From a virus (lineage: Duplodnaviria > Heunggongvirae > Uroviricota > Caudoviricetes): a DNA stretch of 64,000 nt. Both the position numbers and the translations under genes were made by a program. Shown piece by piece: positions 30,407 to 51,774 of this stretch; the stretch's first letter is position 1; every line of letters starts with the position of its first letter. The notes beneath the pieces were generated by a model, which did no database searches, was not told the DNA's origin, and saw only the letters and a list, made by a program, of their open reading frames with translations. The stretch is from IMG/VR virus record IMGVR_UViG_2925891887_000001; one strand, 5' to 3'.

Positions 30407-33400
30407 ATGTGGTACAGGGAAGGTACTATCACATTTACACAGGGCAGCAATACTCTGGTTGGGGCAGGGACAGCCTGGAACGTAACAGCTAATGGTGTGT
30501 TGCCGGGGATGATCGTCATTGGCCCCGACAATAAGCTGTATGAGATCAAGCGCGTAACCAGTGATACGAACATTGTTCTCTCAGAACCTTATACCGGCGA
30601 AACTCAGTCTGAAGTTCCGTGCCGAATCATTACGACCTATGAAGGCGACTTAACACAGTTTAGCGCGCGCTTTACTGCGCTAATGTCGCGTATGTCGGCT
30701 GATTCCAAGTCCATACGCAGTTGGTTGACTGCGCTGGATGAGGTGACAATCGAGCGTGAAGACGGTACAGAAGTGACCGTTAAGCCGCTAATGCAGATCG
30801 TCAACGAGCACAACGAAAACGTTGAGTGGTATAAAAATAACACTGACGCGATTGATGCTGCTGGCGACAAAGCTCGTGAGGCGGCGGCCAGTGCTGCCGC
30901 AGCAGCAAAAAGCGCCAATGCCGCTGGAGAAAAAGCCTCTCAAGCGTCTCAAAGTGCATCCGCTGCGGCATCCTCACAAAGTGCCGCAAGTGCGAGTGCA
31001 ACTGCTGCGAAAAAATCTGAAACGAATGCTGCAGCGTCACAAAAATCTGCAGCCACTTCTGCATCCACCGCGACCACGAAGGCGTCAGAAGCTGCCACCT
31101 CAGCCCGGGATGCGGCGGCCTCAAAAGAGGCAGCGAAATCATCAGAAACGAGCGCAGCCTCGAGCGCCAGTAATGCCGCTTCCTCGGCAACGGCGGCAGG
31201 AAATTCCGCGAAGGCGGCAAAAACGTCCGAGACGAACGCCAGGTCTTCTGAAACGGCAGCGGGACAGAGCGCCTCGGCTGCGGCAGGCTCAAAAACAGCG
31301 GCTGCGTCGTCTGCCAGTGCCGCGTCAACAAGTGCCGGGCAGGCCTCAGCCAGTGCCACCGCCGCCGGAAAATCGGCAGAAAGTGCCGCATCGTCTGCTT
31401 CAACTGCCACAACGAAGGCTGGCCAAGCCACTGAACAGGCCAGCGCAGCAGCGAGGTCTGCTTCCGCAGCGAAGACATCCGAAACGAACGCGAAAGCGTC
31501 GGAAACCCGTGCAGAATCCTCAAAAACGGCAGCCGCATCGTCCGCCAGTTCGGCGGCGTCATCGGCATCATCGGCGTCTGCTTCAAAAGATGAGGCGACC
31601 AGACAGGCGTCAGCAGCGAAGGGCAGCGCCACGACGGCATCCACGAAAGCAACAGAGGCGGCAGGCAGTGCGACGGCAGCATCTCAGAGCAAAACTGCTG
31701 CTGAATCCGCTGCGACCCGTGCGGAAGCTGCTGCTGATCGTGCTGAAGAGATTGCCGGTGCAGTTGCGATGGAAGACGCAAGCCTTACAACTAAAGGTGT
31801 TGTGAAACTTAGCAGTGCTGTCGACAGCACCAGTGAATCGCTGGCCGCAACGCCAAAAGCAGTTAAAGCAGCCAATGACAATGCGAATAGCAGGGTGCCA
31901 TCTAACCGAAAAGTTAACGGTAAAGCACTGACTGCGGATATCAAATTAACGCCGAAAGATATTGGTACTTTAAATTCAGTAACGATGTCTTTCTCTGGCG
32001 GGGCAGGGTGGTTCAAACTGGCTACGGTTACCATGCCACAAGCGAGTTCCATCGTTTACATCGCATTGATTGGTGGCGCTGGTTACAACGTCGGCTCCCC
32101 ACATCAGGCAGGCATTTCAGAACTGGTTCTACGAGCAGGCAATGGAAACCCCAAAGGGATTACAGGTGCTTTGTGGAAGCGTACAGCTGTCGGATTAACG
32201 AATTTCGCCTGGATCAACACATCCGGCGATACATATGATATTTACGTTGAGATTGGCAATTATGCGACTCGTGTAAATATCCATTGGGATTGTACTGCAA
32301 ATGCGACAGTTTCTATTTATACCTCGCCAACATATTCAGCGAGTAAGCCTTCCAGCGTTACCGATGGTGTTGTTTATACGATGTATAGCACACATCAGAA
32401 ACCGACGCCGTTAGATATTGGAGCACTGCCAACAACCGGAGGAACAGTTTCAGGTCCGTTGTCTGTTACAGGTGGATTAACTGGTTCATTGAATGGTAAT
32501 GCAAGTACAGCCACGAAATTGCAGACGGCAAGATCTATCGGTGGAGTTGTTTTCGACGGTTCTGCAAATATTAACCTTCCAGGTGTAAACACTACGGGTA
32601 ATCAGAACACCACTGGTAATGCTGCAACTGCTACAAAACTTCAGACTGCAAGAAAAATATCCGGTGTTCCATTTGATGGTTCTACTGATATCACTTTAAC
32701 CGCTGCGCATGTTGCCGCTTTCGCAAGAAGGGCAACAGGGTCATATGCGGATGCTGATGGTGGCGTGCCGTGGAATGCTGAATCTGGTGCTTACAATGTA
32801 ACTAGAACAGGCGACACCTATATTCTTGCCAACTTTTATACCGGTGTAGGTAGTTGCCGGACCCTGCAGATGAAGGCGCATTACAGAAATGGAGGTCTGT
32901 TCTACCGTTCCTCAAGAGATGGCTATGGTTTTGAAAGTGGTTGGGAGCAGGTTTACACGACTGGATTTATGCCTCAGCCGGCTGATATAAACGCGCCAAC
33001 CGCTGCCGCTGGATGGTTAAATAGTGGTAACGGAACGGCATTTACGACTGCTCAATTTATAACTTGGCTAAATAATCAGGGGGCATTTACAAACAAACAT
33101 TGGATCGCACGGTGCTCATGGACTTACGCCAACAATAATTATATAGACGACACTGGTTGCGGTAGGATCGATCTATCTGGTTCCGTGATTGAGGTGTTTA
33201 GTAATAAGGCAACAAGCCACTACACTATTCGTGTTACAACGACAACAACATCGGGTCATGGTGGTGTTAACAATGCGGAATTTATTTATGTGTACAATGG
33301 AAGTGATTATGCACCAGGCTGGCGTCGTTCTTATAACACTAGAAACAAACCAACAGCTTCTGATGTAGGAGCATTACCGCTTTCAGGTGGCACATTATCT

Positions 33401-34705
33401 GGAGGGTTAACATCTTCTGGTGAGATCATTTCAAAATATGCAAATGGTTTCCGCATTGCTTACGGTAAGTTTGGGTTCTTTATCCGTAATGATGGGGTGA
33501 ACACATATTTCCTGCTAACAGCATCAGGAGACACATTAGGTTCATGGAACGGTTTGCGACCTATTACAATTAATAATACCAGCGGTGCTGTATCAATTGG
33601 TAATGGACTAAATGTGACTGGTGGCGTAAATGGTAGTTTGAACGGTAATGCTTCAACAGCTACGAAGTTGCAAACAGCGAGAAACATCAATGGTGTTAAG
33701 TTTGATGGTTCAGGCGATATCAATATTAATACATTGGTATCTCGTGGCCGAGTTACGGCGTTAAGCGGCTCTACTCAAGGCACTGCTGGCATTCAAATGT
33801 ATGAGGCGTACAACAATAGCTACCCGACCACGTATGGCAACGTATTGCACATGAAAGGTGCGAGTGCTGCTGGTGAGGGCGAGTTGCTTATTGGCTGGAG
33901 TGGTACGAGCGGTGCACATGCGCCAGTTTTCATTCGCTCACGAAGAGATAACACAGGTGCAGCATGGTCAGCGTGGGCGCAGGTATATACCGCTAAGGAT
34001 TCAATCCCTGGTGTGAATACAACTGGTAATCAGAACACTACTGGTAATGCCGCAACCGCCACAAAATTGCAGACAGCAAGGAAAATTGCTGGTGTGGCGT
34101 TTGATGGCTCTGCCGATATAACTTTGACTGCGGCTAACCTTAATGCTTACACGAAAACAGAGGTAGCAAACCTTCTAAGTTCCTATGCAAGCAGATCATC
34201 ACTGACAGGCTATAGTGGCAACCTGGATATTGTTGCTGAAACACTGGTTGTCAAATCAGGCGGTAGTGGAGGGTTTGCTATATGGGATATTGGCACAACT
34301 ACTAGCGGTGCCAATATGTACATTGATCCAAACCCAGGTATCAATACAGTTTGGCGTTCAACGTCTTCAAGGCGCTATAAAAAGGATATTGAAACATTAC
34401 AAGATCGATATGCTGATGAACTTTTGTCATTAAGACCTGTTTGGTATCGTTCAATTTGTCGAGGTGACCGAAAGGATTGGGGGTATTACGGCCTTATTGC
34501 TGAAGAGGTTGGTGAGATTGCCCCGCAATATGTCCATTGGCGTGAACCAACAAATAATGATTCTCCAGAAGATATTTCCTCAAATGGTATGGTCGCTGAA
34601 GGAGTGATGTATGAGCGTTTGGTTGTACCACTCATTTATCATATTCAGCAATTGACCAAAAGGGTTGAGGAGCTTGAAACGAAGTTAAATTCACCTAAAG
34701 AATAA
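30407..34705 (+). CDS. Side tail fibre protein with C-terminal intramolecular chaperone (peptidase S74-like) domain
   Basis: Stf-like Ala/Ser/Thr low-complexity region (KTSETNAKASE...), three copies of NGNASTATKLQTAR-x-I-x-GV-x-FDGS, and C-terminal chaperone-like segment (SRRYKKDIETLQDRYADELLSLRPVWYR). Confidence 0.85.
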   Translation: MWYREGTITFTQGSNTLVGAGTAWNVTANGVLPGMIVIGPDNKLYEIKRVTSDTNIVLSEPYTGETQSEVPCRIITTYEGDLTQFSARFTALMSRMSADSKSIRSWLTALDEVTIEREDGTEVTVKPLMQIVNEHNENVEWYKNNTDAIDAAGDKAREAAASAAAAAKSANAAGEKASQASQSASAAASSQSAASASATAAKKSETNAAASQKSAATSASTATTKASEAATSARDAAASKEAAKSSETSAASSASNAASSATAAGNSAKAAKTSETNARSSETAAGQSASAAAGSKTAAASSASAASTSAGQASASATAAGKSAESAASSASTATTKAGQATEQASAAARSASAAKTSETNAKASETRAESSKTAAASSASSAASSASSASASKDEATRQASAAKGSATTASTKATEAAGSATAASQSKTAAESAATRAEAAADRAEEIAGAVAMEDASLTTKGVVKLSSAVDSTSESLAATPKAVKAANDNANSRVPSNRKVNGKALTADIKLTPKDIGTLNSVTMSFSGGAGWFKLATVTMPQASSIVYIALIGGAGYNVGSPHQAGISELVLRAGNGNPKGITGALWKRTAVGLTNFAWINTSGDTYDIYVEIGNYATRVNIHWDCTANATVSIYTSPTYSASKPSSVTDGVVYTMYSTHQKPTPLDIGALPTTGGTVSGPLSVTGGLTGSLNGNASTATKLQTARSIGGVVFDGSANINLPGVNTTGNQNTTGNAATATKLQTARKISGVPFDGSTDITLTAAHVAAFARRATGSYADADGGVPWNAESGAYNVTRTGDTYILANFYTGVGSCRTLQMKAHYRNGGLFYRSSRDGYGFESGWEQVYTTGFMPQPADINAPTAAAGWLNSGNGTAFTTAQFITWLNNQGAFTNKHWIARCSWTYANNNYIDDTGCGRIDLSGSVIEVFSNKATSHYTIRVTTTTTSGHGGVNNAEFIYVYNGSDYAPGWRRSYNTRNKPTASDVGALPLSGGTLSGGLTSSGEIISKYANGFRIAYGKFGFFIRNDGVNTYFLLTASGDTLGSWNGLRPITINNTSGAVSIGNGLNVTGGVNGSLNGNASTATKLQTARNINGVKFDGSGDININTLVSRGRVTALSGSTQGTAGIQMYEAYNNSYPTTYGNVLHMKGASAAGEGELLIGWSGTSGAHAPVFIRSRRDNTGAAWSAWAQVYTAKDSIPGVNTTGNQNTTGNAATATKLQTARKIAGVAFDGSADITLTAANLNAYTKTEVANLLSSYASRSSLTGYSGNLDIVAETLVVKSGGSGGFAIWDIGTTTSGANMYIDPNPGINTVWRSTSSRRYKKDIETLQDRYADELLSLRPVWYRSICRGDRKDWGYYGLIAEEVGEIAPQYVHWREPTNNDSPEDISSNGMVAEGVMYERLVVPLIYHIQQLTKRVEELETKLNSPKE
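32582..32708 (+). repeat. ~125-bp direct repeat within tail fibre gene (copy 1)
   Basis: ggtgtaaacactacgggtaatcagaacaccactggtaatgctgc... recurs with few mismatches at about 34010-34136. Confidence 0.8.
34010..34136 (+). repeat. ~125-bp direct repeat within tail fibre gene (copy 2)
   Basis: Near-identical to 32582-32708; encodes GVNTTGNQNTTGNAATATKLQTARKI-GV-FDGS-DITLTAA. Confidence 0.8.
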
Positions 34706-34765
34706 ACAACTTCAATCGGGGCTGGAGCTAAACCAGCCCCTGCTTAAAAGTATAAGGATATATTT

Positions 34766-35020
34766 ATGAGCTATGGTGCACAGGTTTGGTCGCCATCAAG
34801 ACAGGAGATGGTCAATGCGTTGGCCCCTGTTTATTACCTCGATTATTTTACTCCCTCTGGTTCAGGAAGTAGAACATATGAGGTTGAGGCGGGATTGGGA
34901 ATCGACTATTACATAATGGACGTAACCAATGGAAAGTACACAAGTCTTACGGTTTCTGGAAATACCATTTCGTGGTCTGGAGCTAGTGGTAATTTAAACA
35001 TATTGGTTTTTCAAAAATAA
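34766..35020 (+). CDS. Hypothetical protein (tail fibre accessory?)
   Basis: 84-aa ORF immediately downstream of tail fibre gene. Confidence 0.35.
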   Translation: MSYGAQVWSPSRQEMVNALAPVYYLDYFTPSGSGSRTYEVEAGLGIDYYIMDVTNGKYTSLTVSGNTISWSGASGNLNILVFQK

Positions 35021-35628
35021 TGTACGGAAGCAAGATATATCGATCTGACGGGAAGGTCTGGATGTCTCCTTCTTTGTCTCCTATCGTTTTTCAGAGAAAG
35101 CAGGTTGTTTCTTTGTCCGGCGGGACAGAGTTTAACACCAAAATATCTCCAGATCGTTCACCGATTATTTTTGTTGCCTATTCGAAAGCTGTTTCATTAA
35201 TAGCCAACAGAATAGTGCGTAACAACCAGGTGATTTACAGTTTCGGAGGTCAGGGTAGCGACTCTAGTGCCACGATATACGTATTTTCGAAAGGTATAGC
35301 CAAAAAAGAAACTTGGGGCATGAGTTTTTTCAATGCACAAGGGGAGGAAATCTATAATACGGCAAATATCCCACTTTCATTTACCTTTCTTAATAATACG
35401 GAGTGGAACAGCTCTGGAGGGCATGTTTTTGATTACCCTCCAGCGATAATCCCAACATATGCGAATGTGTTCGCTGTTCCAGTACCGGGCGGAGCCATGA
35501 CAATGGTTTATGGATATGCGGCATATGGAAATACTGTTAGCTCGATATTCGTAAACCAACTTAATGGCGGCCATAGTTTTAGCGTAAATGGCAGAGTACC
35601 GGTAATAAATAGAAATCTGTATAACTGA
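35020..35628 (+). CDS. Hypothetical protein (tail fibre accessory?)
   Basis: 202-aa ORF coupled to upstream ORF (ATG overlaps stop). Confidence 0.35.
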   Translation: MYGSKIYRSDGKVWMSPSLSPIVFQRKQVVSLSGGTEFNTKISPDRSPIIFVAYSKAVSLIANRIVRNNQVIYSFGGQGSDSSATIYVFSKGIAKKETWGMSFFNAQGEEIYNTANIPLSFTFLNNTEWNSSGGHVFDYPPAIIPTYANVFAVPVPGGAMTMVYGYAAYGNTVSSIFVNQLNGGHSFSVNGRVPVINRNLYN

Positions 35629-35635
35629 TGAGTAG

Positions 35636-35869
35636 ATGATGAAAAGATTATTTCTAACAATAGCTGTTGTTCTCTCTCTTACTGGCTGCCAGAAATTGCC
35701 GACACCTATATGTTACGGTGAGGCTATCATTGGTGGACAGGAGACAGTCATACCCATATATGCTGTTAAAAAAGTGAACGACTATACCTTATACAAAGCG
35801 GGTAGCATCTATAACTGGCGATGGGTAGGAGTAGGTGCTTTCTCATCAGTCCGTTGCAATGCTGAATGA
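35636..35869 (+). CDS. Small lipoprotein, Cor/Llp-like superinfection-exclusion candidate
   Basis: 77 aa; signal peptide plus lipobox (MMKRLFLTIAVVLSLTGC); sits just downstream of receptor-binding genes. Confidence 0.5.
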   Translation: MMKRLFLTIAVVLSLTGCQKLPTPICYGEAIIGGQETVIPIYAVKKVNDYTLYKAGSIYNWRWVGVGAFSSVRCNAE

Positions 35870-35950
35870 TAGGTAAGTACACACCTACAACAAAAGGGTG
35901 AAATGTGATATAAATCCGCCATCCCGATTTGACTTTTCATGGAGGAAAAC

Positions 35951-36274
35951 ATGTCGAACGAGATGGCGGGCGTTACAACAGAGCAAGTTGAGCGTATTGC
36001 CGCGATCGTTGCTCGGGAGGTTGTTGGCAAATTAGGTAAAGAGCTACGTGAAGAAATTGGCCAGGAGGTCAACGATCAGCTGAAAACCTACTTTGGTGAT
36101 ATGACCCCGGCGCAACATAGTATTCAACACTCCAACCTGGACAAACTCCTTAACCGGTTAGATTCCATCTCAAGTGGGTTCTTTGGCGGCATTGTTTCTA
36201 AAATAACGTCGTTCATTATTACCGCACTGCTTTTGGGGTTAGCCGCGTATGGCGTAAAAAATGGACTGCAATAA
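35951..36274 (+). CDS. Holin-like small membrane protein (putative)
   Basis: ATG after GGAGG; one C-terminal transmembrane segment (ITSFIITALLLGLAAYGV); directly upstream of lysis genes. Confidence 0.35.
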   Translation: MSNEMAGVTTEQVERIAAIVAREVVGKLGKELREEIGQEVNDQLKTYFGDMTPAQHSIQHSNLDKLLNRLDSISSGFFGGIVSKITSFIITALLLGLAAYGVKNGLQ

Positions 36275-36287
36275 CAGGAGATCAAGG

Positions 36288-36980
36288 ATGAAGACTCCGA
36301 GAGGTATTCGTAATAATAACCCCGGTAATCTTGATAAAGGATCACCGTGGCAAGGTCTGGTTGCGAATCCAGACGAACCGCGCTTTTGCACGTTTAAAGA
36401 CCCTGTTTGGGGGATTCGTGCACTGGCGGTGACTCTAATTACCTACCACGACAAGCGTCGCGCAAAAGACGGCTCAAGTATCGATACCATTCGTGAAGTT
36501 ATTGAACGTTGGGCACCGCCGAATGAAAACAACACTGACGCCTACATTAATGAGGTGTCTAAAGCCGTTGGTGTAACCGCAGACATGATTATCGATCTGC
36601 ATGATTACGACATTCTTCGACCTTTGGTTGAGGCAATCATTCGCCATGAGAATGGGCGAGGTCCGCTAAAAACGCTGAACACCTGGTATGCGGCAGAAGT
36701 TATTGAGGAAGGTCTGCGTCGAGCTGGCGTCGTTAAGCCGGTGAAAACCGTGAAGGCTGTTCCTGTAACTAAAGAAACAGCAGGCGCAACTGTTACAGCA
36801 GGTATTGGTCTGGCGCAGCTGGCCGATGTTATGCCGCAGGTTTCCGCTGCTATGGATAAAGCACAAGGTCATATCTCTAGCGGGGATACAGTACGCATCA
36901 TCTTCGGTATTGCCACTATTGTTGTGGCTGGATTTATCGCCTGGTCGCAGGTAAGAAGACACCAGAAAGGGATGGTCTAA
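36288..36980 (+). CDS. Lysis cassette protein, endolysin candidate with C-terminal membrane anchor
   Basis: Sits between holin-like gene and Rz/Rz1; conserved-looking N-terminal motif RNNNPGNLDKGSPWQG; C-terminal TM (IIFGIATIVVAGFIAW). Enzymatic class not resolved. Confidence 0.4.
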   Translation: MKTPRGIRNNNPGNLDKGSPWQGLVANPDEPRFCTFKDPVWGIRALAVTLITYHDKRRAKDGSSIDTIREVIERWAPPNENNTDAYINEVSKAVGVTADMIIDLHDYDILRPLVEAIIRHENGRGPLKTLNTWYAAEVIEEGLRRAGVVKPVKTVKAVPVTKETAGATVTAGIGLAQLADVMPQVSAAMDKAQGHISSGDTVRIIFGIATIVVAGFIAWSQVRRHQKGMV

Positions 36981-36981
36981 T

Positions 36982-37233
36982 ATGCTAGGCAGCCTGATGA
37001 CAAAGCTAAAAGTTGCTTTGATTACGCTGGCTGCCGTTCTTTTCGTTCTGGTCGGCGCTTACACGATGGGCGGAAATGCGGCGCGACGAGCAATGGAAGA
37101 GAAGGCAAAACAGGAAGACAGAAAACGACTTCAAAGCACAGTGGATGTCAAAAATGAAACGGTTAATGAAGTGCGGCAAAAAGATGCCTCTGGTGTTCAT
37201 CGCGAGCTGTTTGATAAATGGGTGCGTGATTAA
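36982..37233 (+). CDS. Rz-like inner-membrane spanin (i-spanin)
   Basis: N-terminal TM (LKVALITLAAVLFVLVGAY) then charged coiled-coil region; 83 aa. Confidence 0.6.
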   Translation: MLGSLMTKLKVALITLAAVLFVLVGAYTMGGNAARRAMEEKAKQEDRKRLQSTVDVKNETVNEVRQKDASGVHRELFDKWVRD

Positions 37234-37381
37234 GACGCAGGCTCCAGGCGTGCTATTCTGCGATGCTGCAAATCCTATCTATGTGAGTAGAGAGGATTTT
37301 ATGACTGAGGAAACGGAGCGACAGTTGCTTATCCACAATACGATAGGTGAAAGGCTGTGTGAGTGGGGGCACCTGAACTGA
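37145..37381 (+). CDS. Rz1-like outer-membrane lipoprotein spanin (o-spanin), overlapping Rz in +1 frame
   Basis: Alternate-frame ORF begins inside Rz and extends past its stop; signal peptide with lipobox (MKRLMKCGKKMPLVFIASC); exact start among several in-frame ATGs unresolved. Confidence 0.55.
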   Translation: MSKMKRLMKCGKKMPLVFIASCLINGCVIKTQAPGVLFCDAANPIYVSREDFMTEETERQLLIHNTIGERLCEWGHLN

Positions 37382-37605
37382 GTCGATGATTGATGAGTGG
37401 TCTCAGTTTACCTTTTATCCTAAAGATGGCATCTTCACTCATATACACGCCTGTTCACTCAAGCTCATGTTGAATCATTTAGTAATTTGATGTAGATTTA
37501 TTAGGCATCCACGTAAGTGGGCACATACAGGCTACGCATCCTCGTAGCCTTCAACCCCGAGAGGGGTGCCGCAATGACACTTGTGTTAACGGCTAAGGTG
37601 GATAT

Positions 37606-38025
37606 ATGCTAAATTATCATGACAATACGCGTTCTATGCAGACGATCCGCACCAATACTGCGGTCATCGACAGCTTTCCTATGCGTATTCACAACAGTGA
37701 AGACGCAGTAGAAGTGCGACGTATGTTGTGCCGTGAATCAGCTAACCGCCAGCACTTCATCGTCACTTTTAAGAGCGATGTGGCGCGTGCCGAAAAGATC
37801 TCTAATTCTACGTCACTGGTTAAACCGTTGGCCGAGGTTGTCGCTAACGGTAAACGAACCTCTTTTGTTTTAGATGTTGCTGAACAATATCCTGACTTGA
37901 AGTGTTTAGATCGTGATATTTCTTCACGAATCAAACAAGTTGTAGAGTCTTTTATGAAGAAATTCTGTAAAATCGATGATATGGAACCATCAACGGCACA
38001 GAATACTTCATGGCACCATCTCTAA
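37606..38025 (+). CDS. Hypothetical protein
   Basis: 139-aa ORF from track. Confidence 0.35.
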   Translation: MLNYHDNTRSMQTIRTNTAVIDSFPMRIHNSEDAVEVRRMLCRESANRQHFIVTFKSDVARAEKISNSTSLVKPLAEVVANGKRTSFVLDVAEQYPDLKCLDRDISSRIKQVVESFMKKFCKIDDMEPSTAQNTSWHHL

Positions 38026-38783
38026 TTGGTCAGGCGAACAGATTAATCCCTGAAATAGAAGACTACAGCAAGGTCTTGTCTGAAATGCCGAGAGCGACGA
38101 GAATTATCGCTCTCGGTGAGTTCTATTTTATCTCCCGAGGTTTCGATCTAATTCGATTTACCGAATACGAGCTTGTTGATTCGGCCTATGAACGCTGTAT
38201 TGTTGGCGAGTGTCTTGAGTCATGTGATCCTGATTACCAAGAGCAGGAAGTTAAGCGACTCAAACGTGCTGGTTACACACCTCTTGAGATAGGAGCAGAA
38301 ATTGAATCCTACAAGTTGCATGTGGGGCAGCCAGTCCAAACAGTCTTCCGCGTGGCCTACTGCGAGTTTCCAATCAAGGATAAATCTGGAGTAAAAGTCA
38401 GCGCCAAGCAGATTAGAGGGGTTTTTACTCATGCTGATTATATGGGATTAGGCATCGCAAGTTTTGCTTACCTTTATCTCGTAGATAAGTATCAGTACTT
38501 GGTTTGCGATACGTTACAGACGGTAAAAGGCGCAACTCTTTGGGCTGTGAGTATGCGCAAACATGGACTGGTCGAAATTTACGATACGAAGAACGAAAAT
38601 TTTATAGAGGAATTGGGTGAGGATGCCTGTGGCGTAAGTGGTTTTATTCCGTGGGATATCGGTAAGTCTGACGGAGGCCAGATGCGAAGACGTGAAGAGT
38701 GGGGGACTAATAAAATCAATCTCACCCCAGGTGCTTGTACTCATATAGTGAACATTCTGACTAAACGATCTATGAATCAATAA
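38010..38783 (+). CDS. Hypothetical protein
   Basis: 257-aa ORF from track; followed by intrinsic terminator. Confidence 0.35.
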   Translation: MAPSLIGQANRLIPEIEDYSKVLSEMPRATRIIALGEFYFISRGFDLIRFTEYELVDSAYERCIVGECLESCDPDYQEQEVKRLKRAGYTPLEIGAEIESYKLHVGQPVQTVFRVAYCEFPIKDKSGVKVSAKQIRGVFTHADYMGLGIASFAYLYLVDKYQYLVCDTLQTVKGATLWAVSMRKHGLVEIYDTKNENFIEELGEDACGVSGFIPWDIGKSDGGQMRRREEWGTNKINLTPGACTHIVNILTKRSMNQ

Positions 38784-38932: not shown

Positions 38933-39601
38933 ATGACCAAGATCTTTGTGGTTGGCGGCACAAAGGGCGGGCCTGGCAAATCCACCGTTGCCCAGCAAAT
39001 TGCCGTTTGCCTGAAAGTCAAAAAGAAGAAGAAGGTTTATATTACCGATATAGATATTCAGCGCACGACAACGAGCTGGTGTGAAGACCGTCGACAGAAC
39101 GAAGACCTTGAGCTGATTCCTTTCGCATACGTTCAGGATGACATCATTAAGCACCTAAAATCGCTTCAGGGTAGAGCTGAGTTTGTAGTGGTAGATGCTG
39201 GTGGCTTCGACTCCGAAATTCAGCGACAAGCGATGCTGATGGCTGACGTTATCATTATCCCGCTGCGTCCTAAGCGTCGTGATTTGAAATCTTTACGTGA
39301 CATCGATCCTATTATCGACAATGTTCGCAATGTAAACGATAAAGTGAAGGTCCGCGCGGTCATGAACCAGTGCCCGGCTTTGCCATCACAAGTGTCTCGC
39401 ATTCTGGCGGCTAAAGAGATTGTTGAGACGTTTGGCATCGAGTCTGCGCCAGTCAATCTATATAACCGCAACGTCTATGATGATGCGGAAGAGTCTGGTC
39501 GTTCTATCTTTGAAATGACCGGTAGCGAGCGCGACAAAAAGGCGGAAGCCGAGTTTGAAGAATTTGTAGATTATCTGTTGAGTCTGGAGGAAGAAGAATA
39601 A
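38933..39601 (+). CDS. ParA/ParF-like partition ATPase (type Ib)
   Basis: Deviant Walker A GGTKGGPGKST, small size (222 aa), acidic C-terminus. Confidence 0.8.
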   Translation: MTKIFVVGGTKGGPGKSTVAQQIAVCLKVKKKKKVYITDIDIQRTTTSWCEDRRQNEDLELIPFAYVQDDIIKHLKSLQGRAEFVVVDAGGFDSEIQRQAMLMADVIIIPLRPKRRDLKSLRDIDPIIDNVRNVNDKVKVRAVMNQCPALPSQVSRILAAKEIVETFGIESAPVNLYNRNVYDDAEESGRSIFEMTGSERDKKAEAEFEEFVDYLLSLEEEE

Positions 39602-51527: not shown

Positions 51528-51602
51528 GATGGTGTAGCTCAGCGGTAGAGCAGTTGGCTGTTAACCAACTGGTCGGTGGTTCGAATCCACCCACCATCGC
51601 CA
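51528..51602 (+). tRNA. tRNA-Asn (anticodon GTT)
   Basis: Manual fold: acceptor gatggtg/caccatc, D-arm tagctcagcggtagagca, anticodon loop ctGTTaa, T-loop ggttcgaatcc, encoded CCA. Confidence 0.8.
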
Positions 51603-51607
51603 ATTTA

Positions 51608-51694
51608 GGGGAGTTAGTCCGTAGAGGTAGCGGTGTAGACTGTAAATCTACTGTCATGGCGACTCGGGTGGTTCGACTCCATCACTCCCCACCA
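51608..51694 (+). tRNA. tRNA-Tyr (anticodon GTA), long variable arm
   Basis: Acceptor ggggagt/actcccc, anticodon loop ctGTAaa, long variable arm, T-loop ttcgact, encoded CCA; D-arm pairing weak. Confidence 0.7.
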
Positions 51695-51698
51695 AATT

Positions 51699-51774
51699 GC
51701 CGGTTTAGCTCAGTTGGTAGAGCAGTCGCTTTGTAAGCGAATGGCCAGCGGTTCAAGTCCGTTAACCGGCACCA
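51699..51774 (+). tRNA. tRNA-Thr (anticodon TGT), tentative isotype
   Basis: Acceptor gccggtt/aaccggc, D-arm tagctcagttggtagagca, anticodon loop ttTGTaa, T-loop ttcaagt, encoded CCA. Confidence 0.7.

Follow-up and report, generated by a model that had tools for sequence, protein, structure and literature searches.

A predicted Enc34/M4Lys-type endolysin with a C-terminal membrane module in the probable lysis cassette of an SSU5-like phage-plasmid

Two characterised endolysins, the product of open reading frame (ORF) 39 of the Hafnia phage Enc34 and M4Lys of the Salmonella phage BSPM4, provide the closest described counterparts of the enzyme considered here, and peptidoglycan-degrading activity has been demonstrated for both, toxicity or lysis being confined to their full-length forms (PMC8943055, PMC7143992). 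In Enc34 ORF39, Glu131, Trp79 and Tyr95 are the counterparts of the catalytic residues of the GH73 and GH23 families (Cernooka et al., PMC8943055). The isolated domain of this protein lyses E. coli, P. aeruginosa and H. alvei with permeabilised outer membranes, and the full-length protein is toxic (PMC8943055). M4Lys by itself lyses E. coli, and a Sec inhibitor is without effect (Bai et al., PMC7143992). Co-expression of the putative holin does not alter this lysis, deletion of the transmembrane domain (TMD) abolishes it, and the TMD by itself is not lytic (PMC7143992). The present analysis concerns four genes at positions 35951-37381 of the virus record IMGVR_UViG_2925891887_000001 (IMG/VR, Caudoviricetes), of which a stretch of 64,000 nucleotides is referred to as the window; coordinates without a further label are positions in it. 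The genes encode a tail-anchored protein, an endolysin and the spanin proteins Rz and Rz1 (Table 1).

The ORF listing and a reading of 35700-37700 showed that the four genes are co-oriented and closely packed on the plus strand. A 2.1-kb query spanning the cassette is 99.9% identical to the E. coli plasmid pS2-S1K81-2 (NZ_CP107145.1) and matches 392 PLSDB plasmids, 85 of them at a coverage of at least 80%, mostly from Escherichia, Enterobacter, Salmonella and Citrobacter. At the nucleotide level the cassette is 94% identical to that of phage Cyrano and 83% identical to that of phage SSU5, in which the same four genes already carry the annotation holin, endolysin, Rz and Rz1. The plasmid match, together with the similarity to Cyrano and SSU5 and the shared gene set, therefore identifies the window as part of an SSU5-like phage-plasmid, and the region is very probably the late lysis cassette of such an element from E. 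coli. The cassettes of SSU5 (SSU5_026-030) and Cyrano (CYRAN_22-25) are orthologous four-gene cassettes with allelic differences only. Thus, the cassette is already known, as a near-identical copy of a published type whose endolysin class was settled in 2020-2022 and whose spanins were catalogued in 2018. The identity of its parts, namely the endolysin type and the spanin pair, can be given with high confidence.

Comparison of the endolysin with PDB entry 7Q47 chain A (Enc34 ORF39) using phmmer gave E=2.6e-54 over residues 3-151, and the protein belongs to phrog_873, labelled 'endolysin' (4.9e-88, PHROGs). An AlphaFold2 (AF2) model was built on 30 homologues and has predicted local distance difference test (pLDDT) values of 80-96 over the enzymatic domain. 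A Foldseek search with this model returned 7Q47 as the top match, with a template modelling (TM) score of 0.82 and 60% identity. The profile and structure predictions proposed for 36288-36980 in the initial annotation, which had left the class of the protein open, thus place it in the Enc34 ORF39/M4Lys type with crystal structure 7Q47. On sequence grounds the protein is a full-length member of this type, with a PHA02564 domain followed by a C-terminal two-helix module. It aligns over its full length with both characterised proteins; the enzymatic domain is 64% identical to that of Enc34 ORF39 and 63% to that of M4Lys, whereas the module (C-terminal 80 residues) is only 44% and 46% identical, respectively. 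Domain order is the same as in M4Lys, and Enc34 ORF39 shares the PVTKET-like linker, the two C-terminal helices and the basic tail. The window protein is 12 aa shorter than Enc34 ORF39, which has extra residues at two sites, 5 aa after WAPP and 6 aa after RHENG. The genetic carrier differs as well, a 110-kb phage-plasmid here and a chi-like lytic siphovirus of 60 kb in the case of Enc34.

The proposed catalytic residues are conserved. In an alignment of 30 endolysin homologues reaching down to 56% identity, Gly6, Arg8, Asn11, Pro12, Gly13 and Asn14 are invariant, bearing out the conservation suspected for the RNNNPGN motif from a single sequence. The motif is common to Enc34, M4Lys and the virion protein Gp29 (PDB 9VVP). 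Trp75, Tyr86 and Glu121 are likewise invariant across the 30 homologues, and this Trp/Tyr/Glu signature is shared with Enc34 ORF39 (Table 1). No Pfam or NCBIfam model matches the endolysin, in agreement with the earlier remark that no lysozyme or amidase signature could be recognised; this gap explains both the missing signature and the RefSeq label 'membrane protein'.

The family is large, with 1932 clusters at E<=1e-10. The domain is carried by 793 phage records. Of these, 182 cover 80% or more of the query length, and the listed full-length matches come from chi-like and SSU5-like phages. The SSU5 endolysin is 92-95% identical to that of the window. Other carriers have the domain at the N-terminus of virion proteins such as the K1F gp16-type core proteins and Gp29 of phage E1004 (9VVP). 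These share the catalytic domain and RNNNPGN (E=5.5e-22); however, they exceed 1000 aa, are ejected, have no C-terminal hairpin and lie outside lysis cassettes. A separate canonical endolysin was looked for at the level of annotation, and none besides that of the cassette is listed for SSU5 (131 features, ~100 kb of the 103,299-bp record) or in NZ_CP107145.1 (128 features). Apart from the cassette, the sole wall-active annotation is that of a C40 peptidase; it belongs to the tail module and was rejected as an endolysin. Distant from the lysis cassette, SSU5 also has a gene that RefSeq labels 'lysozyme inhibitor LprI family protein' (SSU5_101, 86898-87596; L006:36898-37596).

Table 1. Positions of the cassette genes and of the motifs discussed in the text
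Feature	Position	Strand	Basis or remark
First gene, 107-aa tail-anchored protein	35951-36274	+	ORF listing, sequence reading; phrog_5093
Endolysin, 230 aa	36288-36980	+	ORF listing; PDB 7Q47, phrog_873
RNNNPGN motif of endolysin (aa 8-14)	36309-36329	+	Invariant residues in alignment of 30 homologues
Trp75 codon (ERWAPP)	36510-36512	+	Equals Enc34 Trp79
Tyr86 codon	36543-36545	+	Equals Enc34 Tyr95
Glu121 codon (RHENG)	36648-36650	+	Aligns with catalytic Glu131 of Enc34 ORF39
C-terminal membrane module of endolysin (helix 1, loop, helix 2)	36777-36953	+	Hydropathy, charge counts, conservation in alignment of 30 homologues
Rz-like i-spanin, 83 aa	36982-37233	+	phrog_1026, alignment with Enc34 ORF40
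Rz1-like o-spanin, 75 aa	37154-37381	+	phrog_1275, alignment with Enc34 ORF41, BSPM4, SSU5
Lipobox LINGC of Rz1 (aa 20-24)	37211-37225	+	Cys24 codon 37223-37225, invariant

The C-terminal part of the endolysin was noted earlier as a transmembrane segment. A membrane segment is indeed present; however, it is a module of two helices rather than a single segment. Helix 1 (residues 164-185) is weakly hydrophobic, with a maximal Kyte-Doolittle hydropathy (KD19) of 1.11 and 50% Gly, Ala, Ser or Thr, whereas helix 2 (residues 203-222) is strongly hydrophobic (KD19 of 2.07). The helices are joined by a loop of residues 186-202 and flanked by the invariant linker PVTKET and by the basic tail RRHQKGMV. 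The 20 residues ahead of helix 1 contain six basic residues and one acidic residue, the loop one and two, and the C-terminal tail three and none. The positive-inside rule relates basic flanks to the cytoplasmic side of the membrane. By this rule, the charge distribution predicts a hairpin with the N-terminus inside, the loop outside and the C-terminus inside, with the enzymatic domain in the cytoplasm and tethered to the membrane. The N-terminus of the endolysin (MKTPRGIRNNNPG / MKTPRGIRNNNPGNLDKGSPW) is hydrophilic, and no N-terminal signal or signal-anchor-release (SAR) segment is present. The protein was therefore rejected as a SAR endolysin, its hydrophobic segments outside the fold core being only C-terminal. 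SAR endolysins (P1 Lyz, phage 21 R21), with their pinholins, are similar in that the enzyme is held at the inner membrane by a weak Gly/Ala-rich helix and that lysis is possible without a large-hole holin (PMC8943055). In contrast, the helix of SAR endolysins is N-terminal and the enzyme is Sec-exported and periplasmic, whereas here the module is C-terminal, a signal is lacking, the homologue M4Lys is independent of Sec and a cytoplasmic enzyme is predicted. The suggestion that the protein may be a non-canonical, membrane-tethered wall hydrolase was correct in outline, to judge from the 7Q47 match and the predicted C-terminal hairpin.

Conservation within the module is higher than expected of a mere anchor. 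Pro159, Thr161, Glu163, Ala167, Gly174, Gln177, Pro183, Ala188, Ser198, Ala218 and Gln221 are invariant in the 30-sequence alignment. By sequence, the module thus appears conserved, including at many non-hydrophobic positions, beyond the needs of a passive anchor. A further full-length homologue, of metagenomic origin and with 40% identity (L094:3868-4563, Logan SRR30563942) lies in a cassette of phrog_5093, endolysin and Rz genes. The residues of its catalytic signature are all replaced (R8C, W75Y, Y86Q, E121Y), and its module is as similar to that of the window protein as the rest of the sequence is. It may be an enzymatically dead copy kept for a membrane function.

Rz belongs to phrog_1026 (5.7e-25) and Rz1 to phrog_1275 (9.6e-26), both PHROGs of Rz-like spanins, and the two proteins align with Enc34 ORF40 and ORF41. 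The Rz1 frame is uninterrupted from 37076 to its stop codon at 37381, and its conserved start codon is at 37154 (MKRLMK...). Rz1 is in frame +1 relative to Rz, shares 80 nt with it (37154-37233) and runs 148 nt beyond the Rz stop; reading frames and PHROG matches thus agree with the initial annotation, in which Rz1 started inside Rz in the +1 frame and extended past its stop. Rz1 is kept in 79 of 80 related loci, and this conservation, together with the PHROG matches, argues that the spanin ORFs do not arise by chance. The sequences assign Rz and Rz1 to the overlapped two-component spanins of the Chi/SSU5 family. Rz has a predicted N-terminal TMD at about residues 11-29 (KD19 of 2.38 within residues 1-35) behind the basic N-terminus MLGSLMTKLK, followed by a periplasmic helical domain of ~54 aa without cysteine. 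With its 83 aa it is very short compared with the 153 aa of lambda Rz. About 50 aa are periplasmic, and no coiled coil is predicted for it in the Kongari survey. In that survey the SSU5 o-spanin belongs to the 'Chi' family and SSU5 is listed as overlapped ('ovl') in the +1 frame (Kongari et al. 2018, PMC6139136). The supplements give 83 aa for the SSU5 i-spanin, 50 of them periplasmic, and 76 aa for the o-spanin, 57 of them periplasmic (PMC6139136). The endolysin gene of Enc34 likewise lies upstream of a homologous short Rz gene and an overlapped Rz1 gene. Both the Chi/SSU5 o-spanins and the P2 LysB/LysC-type overlapped spanins start in the +1 frame inside the i-spanin gene and run past its stop, and both types pair a cysteine-free i-spanin with two periplasmic cysteines in the o-spanin (PMC6139136), which is the commonest pattern (Kongari et al. 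2018, PMC6139136).

The signal peptide of Rz1 (MKRLMKCGKKMPLVFIASCLING) consists of MKRLMKCGKK, a 13-aa hydrophobic region and the lipobox L-I-N-G-C. Cys24 of this lipobox is invariant in 79 SSU5-like loci, Enc34 and BSPM4, and the relatives usually have ISGC or VSGC; SSU5 differs from the window in having VSGC in place of INGC. By the lipobox consensus, Asn at -2 is atypical, Ser being present in most relatives. The mature protein would comprise 52 aa from Cys24, with Val at +2 and two conserved periplasmic cysteines in the motifs FCD and RLCxW. In the light of the Asp+2 rule for the membrane sorting of lipoproteins, the Val at +2 is consistent with outer-membrane sorting of Rz1. The lipobox had initially been placed at IASC; however, its cysteine, Cys19 (37208-37210), gives way to Phe in ~21 of the 79 SSU5-like loci, as it does in Enc34 and BSPM4. 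The 57 periplasmic residues given for the 76-aa SSU5 o-spanin imply that Cys20 of its VSGC is acylated. Since Cys24 is invariant and Cys19 variable, and since the published periplasmic length agrees, Cys24 of LINGC is the most probable acylated residue of Rz1.

The product of the first gene has a single family match, to phrog_5093 of 'unknown function' (7e-69, PHROGs). No Pfam or NCBIfam model matches it, and a Foldseek search of its model against the PDB gave no match. The AF2 model (pLDDT 85.7) shows two long helices (residues 10-48 and 53-103) connected by an FGDMTP turn. The second helix runs into a predicted TMD at about residues 80-102, within a hydrophobic stretch found in residues 72-107 (KD19 of 2.02), and ends in the 5-aa tail KNGLQ. 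An exhaustive HMMER search for phrog_5093 yielded 56 cluster representatives of 94-150 aa. Their alignment shows a charged N-terminal helical region, then the invariant residues Gly49, His56 and His60 (G-x6-H-x3-H) within the motif YFGDMTPxQHxxQHxRxDxLLxxLD, then the C-terminal TMD and a very short tail. No charged hydrophilic C-terminal domain follows the TMD; the hydrophilic domain is N-terminal. The model thus describes a tail-anchored protein with a presumed cytoplasmic domain, which is not the usual layout of a holin. The initial annotation called the gene holin-like. Its product shares with holins a small size, at least one TMD and a gene beside that of the endolysin; however, the label derives from position, and the protein matches no described holin family in Pfam, NCBIfam, the PHROGs or by fold in the PDB. 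Close relatives occur in SSU5-like elements only, and a motif scan of IMG/VR for phrog_5093 returned almost only such elements.

In the chi-like phages another family occupies this place. The first gene is unrelated to its chi-type counterparts, Enc34 ORF38 and BSPM4 ORF37 (hhalign probability 1.4%), and the TMD of Enc34 ORF38 is N-terminal. A DUF2730 releasin was considered and rejected, with no PF10805 match for the window protein, 29 relatives, Enc34 ORF38 or BSPM4 ORF37. The Mu gp25 releasin (DUF2730, PMC9239132) resembles the first gene product in being a small membrane-tethered cytoplasmic protein encoded beside diverse endolysins. However, the two share no sequence relationship; the releasin has an N-terminal TMD and a gene downstream of the endolysin gene, whereas phrog_5093 proteins have a C-terminal TMD and a gene upstream.

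The genomic context of phrog_5093 was examined in 10 individual look-ups of distant members and one extra locus (L169). An endolysin gene lies at most two genes downstream in 9 of the 10 members, often overlapping the stop codon of the member. The endolysin types comprise PHA02564 with a TMD (P0036), Peptidase_M15_3 (P0033, P0041, P0043, P0050, P0057), GH108 with PG_binding_3 (P0051), a SAR-lysozyme-like protein (P0046) and phrog_669 (P0034, also L169). All examined cassettes with a TMD-less endolysin encode an extra small protein of 58-107 aa with one or two TMDs, and some of these match holin PHROGs (phrog_8226 and, weakly, phrog_34682). The SSU5-type cassette has no such protein; the other plus-strand ORFs of at least 30 aa in 35870-37600 are without a hydrophobic segment. 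This pattern ties the phrog_5093 family firmly to lysis. By analogy, it also suggests a role as a regulator or co-factor. The family is the least understood part of the cassette and its sole part without a known family.

These comparisons suggest a division of labour in which the endolysin would be produced as a cytoplasmic enzyme that its C-terminal helical hairpin anchors on the cytoplasmic side of the inner membrane. The hairpin itself would provide or nucleate a membrane lesion that gives the enzymatic domain access to the wall, as found for M4Lys. M4Lys, which lyses alone, independently of Sec and by means of its TMD, is the best guide to the working of the window protein, although M4Lys is partnered by the chi-type gene ORF_37 rather than by phrog_5093. 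The enzyme most likely cuts a glycosidic bond in peptidoglycan; Glu121 would serve as the catalytic acid, and Trp75 and Tyr86 would hold the substrate in position. The first gene product would set or modulate the timing of the lesion as an antiholin, a co-holin or a releasin-like regulator, and is probably not the sole hole-former. Finally, Rz in the inner membrane and Rz1, an outer-membrane lipoprotein acylated at Cys24, would act as a Chi/SSU5-type spanin and remove the outer membrane last. In its weak Gly/Ala/Thr-rich helix 1, strong helix 2 and basic tail, the module resembles a class II holin, and the authors of the M4Lys study also remarked on its holin-like tail (PMC7143992). Because the module is over-conserved and is kept in the L094 homologue without the catalytic residues, a hairpin that itself makes or nucleates the lesion appears the most likely arrangement, and it is put forward tentatively; the proposed sharing of tasks between hairpin and first gene is held with the same reserve.

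Several observations weigh against this arrangement. A search with the module alone matched no holin PHROG, only phrog_873 itself and, weakly, the 'membrane protein' phrog_1130 (E=0.007), so that a holin origin of the module is an analogy and not a homology. AF2 confidence is low for residues 159-199, although helices are predicted there. The published account calls the route to the periplasm of an N-terminal domain with a C-terminal hairpin unknown (PMC8943055). The transmembrane segment of M4Lys alone is bacteriostatic and not lytic (PMC8943055, PMC7143992), and lysis without a holin is possibly an artefact of over-expression according to the Enc34 authors (PMC8943055). For the enzyme, high-performance liquid chromatography-mass spectrometry of M4Lys digests suggested glucosaminidase and endopeptidase activities, but the structure favours glycosidase activity alone (PMC8943055); the Enc34/M4Lys family's bond specificity is thus unsettled between the two. 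The functions of the window proteins are carried over from experiments on their homologues, and the absence of a second endolysin holds at the level of annotation, as the hypothetical proteins were not scanned singly.

A classical split of tasks, in which the first gene encodes the true holin or a pinholin and the hairpin is a mere anchor holding the enzyme inactive until a trigger, as a C-terminal analogue of SAR control, is a weaker but serious candidate. The first gene heads the cassette and encodes a small protein with a TMD, the annotations of Cyrano and SSU5 name it 'holin', and its family is tightly linked to five endolysin types; the Enc34 authors also speculate on SAR-like tethering with a pinholin (PMC8943055), and the M4Lys TMD alone does not lyse (PMC7143992). 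However, its single TMD is placed right at the C-terminal end, where a tail of 5 aa follows in place of a charged domain, no known holin family matches it, and the distant phrog_5093 cassettes hold a separate holin-like protein with one or two TMDs. In BSPM4, moreover, the first gene, which is not homologous, did not lyse cells and left the kinetics of M4Lys unaltered (PMC7143992), and since the chi-type first gene is unrelated, the endolysin's need for a partner cannot be very specific. A further proposal is that phrog_5093 represents an undescribed class of lysis-control protein which, in SSU5-like elements, would gate the endolysin hairpin without forming the hole itself; the SSU5/chi endolysin would then be an endolysin-holin fusion of natural origin, in a holin-less or split-holin cassette. 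This proposal is judged about as probable as the classical split.

Export of the enzyme is improbable. In such a scheme the enzymatic domain would be periplasmic, anchored by the last helix only (N-out/C-in), with helix 1 lying as an amphipathic helix at the membrane interface, and depolarisation would activate or release the enzyme. Only helix 2 is clearly hydrophobic, several predictors saw a single TMD in M4Lys (PMC7143992), and the holin-free lysis recalls the behaviour of SAR endolysins (PMC8943055). However, the N-terminus MKTPRGIRNNNPG contains neither a signal nor a SAR segment, the six basic residues just ahead of helix 1 argue for the cytoplasmic side, lysis by M4Lys is independent of Sec (PMC7143992), and no known pathway moves an N-terminal domain of ~160 aa by a C-terminal signal (PMC8943055). 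The idea that the protein is a virion-associated or injection-stage hydrolase, with the real endolysin unrecognised elsewhere, draws on the same domain in E1004 Gp29, K1F gp16-type internal core proteins and the tape-measure and 'tail injection transglycosylase' PHROGs and on homologues labelled 'virion protein' in some databases, but it is highly improbable and was rejected on gene context and architecture, the gene being inserted between the holin-like gene and Rz/Rz1 with gaps of 13 nt and 1 nt, a membrane module being present instead of a structural domain, M4Lys as a full-length homologue lysing cells from within (PMC7143992), and two related complete genomes showing no other annotated endolysin.

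At the level of expression, the first gene is preceded by the Shine-Dalgarno sequence GGAGG (35941-35945), 5 nt ahead of the ATG at whose Met the PHROG alignment begins. As to a dual start of the holin/antiholin kind, in-frame Met codons occur at 35939, 35951 and 35963 (MEENMSNEM...), but the N-termini of the family are not conserved. AGGAG (36276-36280) lies 7 nt ahead of the endolysin ATG, 13 nt separate the endolysin gene from the first-gene stop, and Rz starts 1 nt past the endolysin stop. A scan of 34600-38200 for sigma-70 promoters and intrinsic terminators found none within the cassette; transcription presumably enters it from the late/tail operon by read-through. The order endolysin-Rz-Rz1 is present in 55 of 73 related loci. 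In a diverged SSU5-like element (L161:3317-5807, IMG/VR 2751185775_000001), the cassette is split between the endolysin and Rz/Rz1 by an insert of ~1.4 kb with two ORFs and a 91-aa lipoprotein.

Upstream, a 1432-aa tail-fibre ORF (30407-34705, plus strand) has a long Ala/Ser/Thr-rich low-complexity stretch at about residues 150-480 and also repeated NASTATKLQTAR / GNAATATKLQTARKI units; its counterpart in the 99.9%-identical plasmid is annotated shorter, at 3882 nt. Between tail fibre and cassette (34766-35869, plus strand) lie three small genes with products of 84 aa (phrog_557, 'outer membrane protein'), 202 aa (phrog_425, 'membrane associated protein') and 77 aa (a Cor superinfection-exclusion lipoprotein with the lipobox LTGC), and the whole trio is also present in SSU5. 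Downstream, the 224-nt gap from the Rz1 stop to the ORF at 37606 contains a three-hairpin structure (37504-37570, plus strand) with an RNA minimum free energy of -31.2 kcal/mol and z = -3.3 against shuffles, without an Rfam match and without a T-run after it. This region is missing from Cyrano and SSU5, whose similarity stops near 37361. It is followed by two overlapping genes of unknown function (37606-38783, plus strand; 139 aa, phrog_2594, and 257 aa, phrog_3307) before parA (38933-39601). The site is a variable cargo spot, where the opposite strand of Cyrano encodes a KacT toxin-antitoxin pair. Farther away, Rfam identifies three tRNA genes in 51528-51771 (plus strand), where the near-identical plasmid annotates four (Ser, Thr, Tyr, Asn).

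The cassette is poorly served by automated annotation. Pfam and NCBIfam scans found no significant family for any of the four proteins, and because no model of either database covers them, RefSeq mislabels genes and omits Rz1. In NZ_CP107145.1 the endolysin is a 'membrane protein', Rz is 'hypothetical' and Rz1 is not called. Annotation problems affect the records NZ_CP107145.1, OV696614.1 and NC_048655.1; among them, Cyrano has a non-overlapping 39-aa ORF labelled Rz1. In the RefSeq record of BSPM4, the chi-type first gene is labelled 'Rz-like spanin' and an antisense 'tail protein' stands at the position of Rz. Automated annotation thus overlooks the lytic capacity of these plasmids, which are widespread and often carry resistance genes.

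The cassette itself offers little new biology, as the enzyme class, the structure and the spanin family are published and the cassette occurs in hundreds of sequenced Enterobacteriaceae phage-plasmids. The mechanistic question it shares with the literature concerns the access of a hairpin-bearing endolysin to the wall and the role of the gene ahead of it, and SSU5-like elements provide a convenient inducible E. coli system for addressing both. The comparative pattern, in which phrog_5093 accompanies many endolysin types and an extra membrane protein is present where the hairpin is missing, forms a testable hypothesis for this division of roles.

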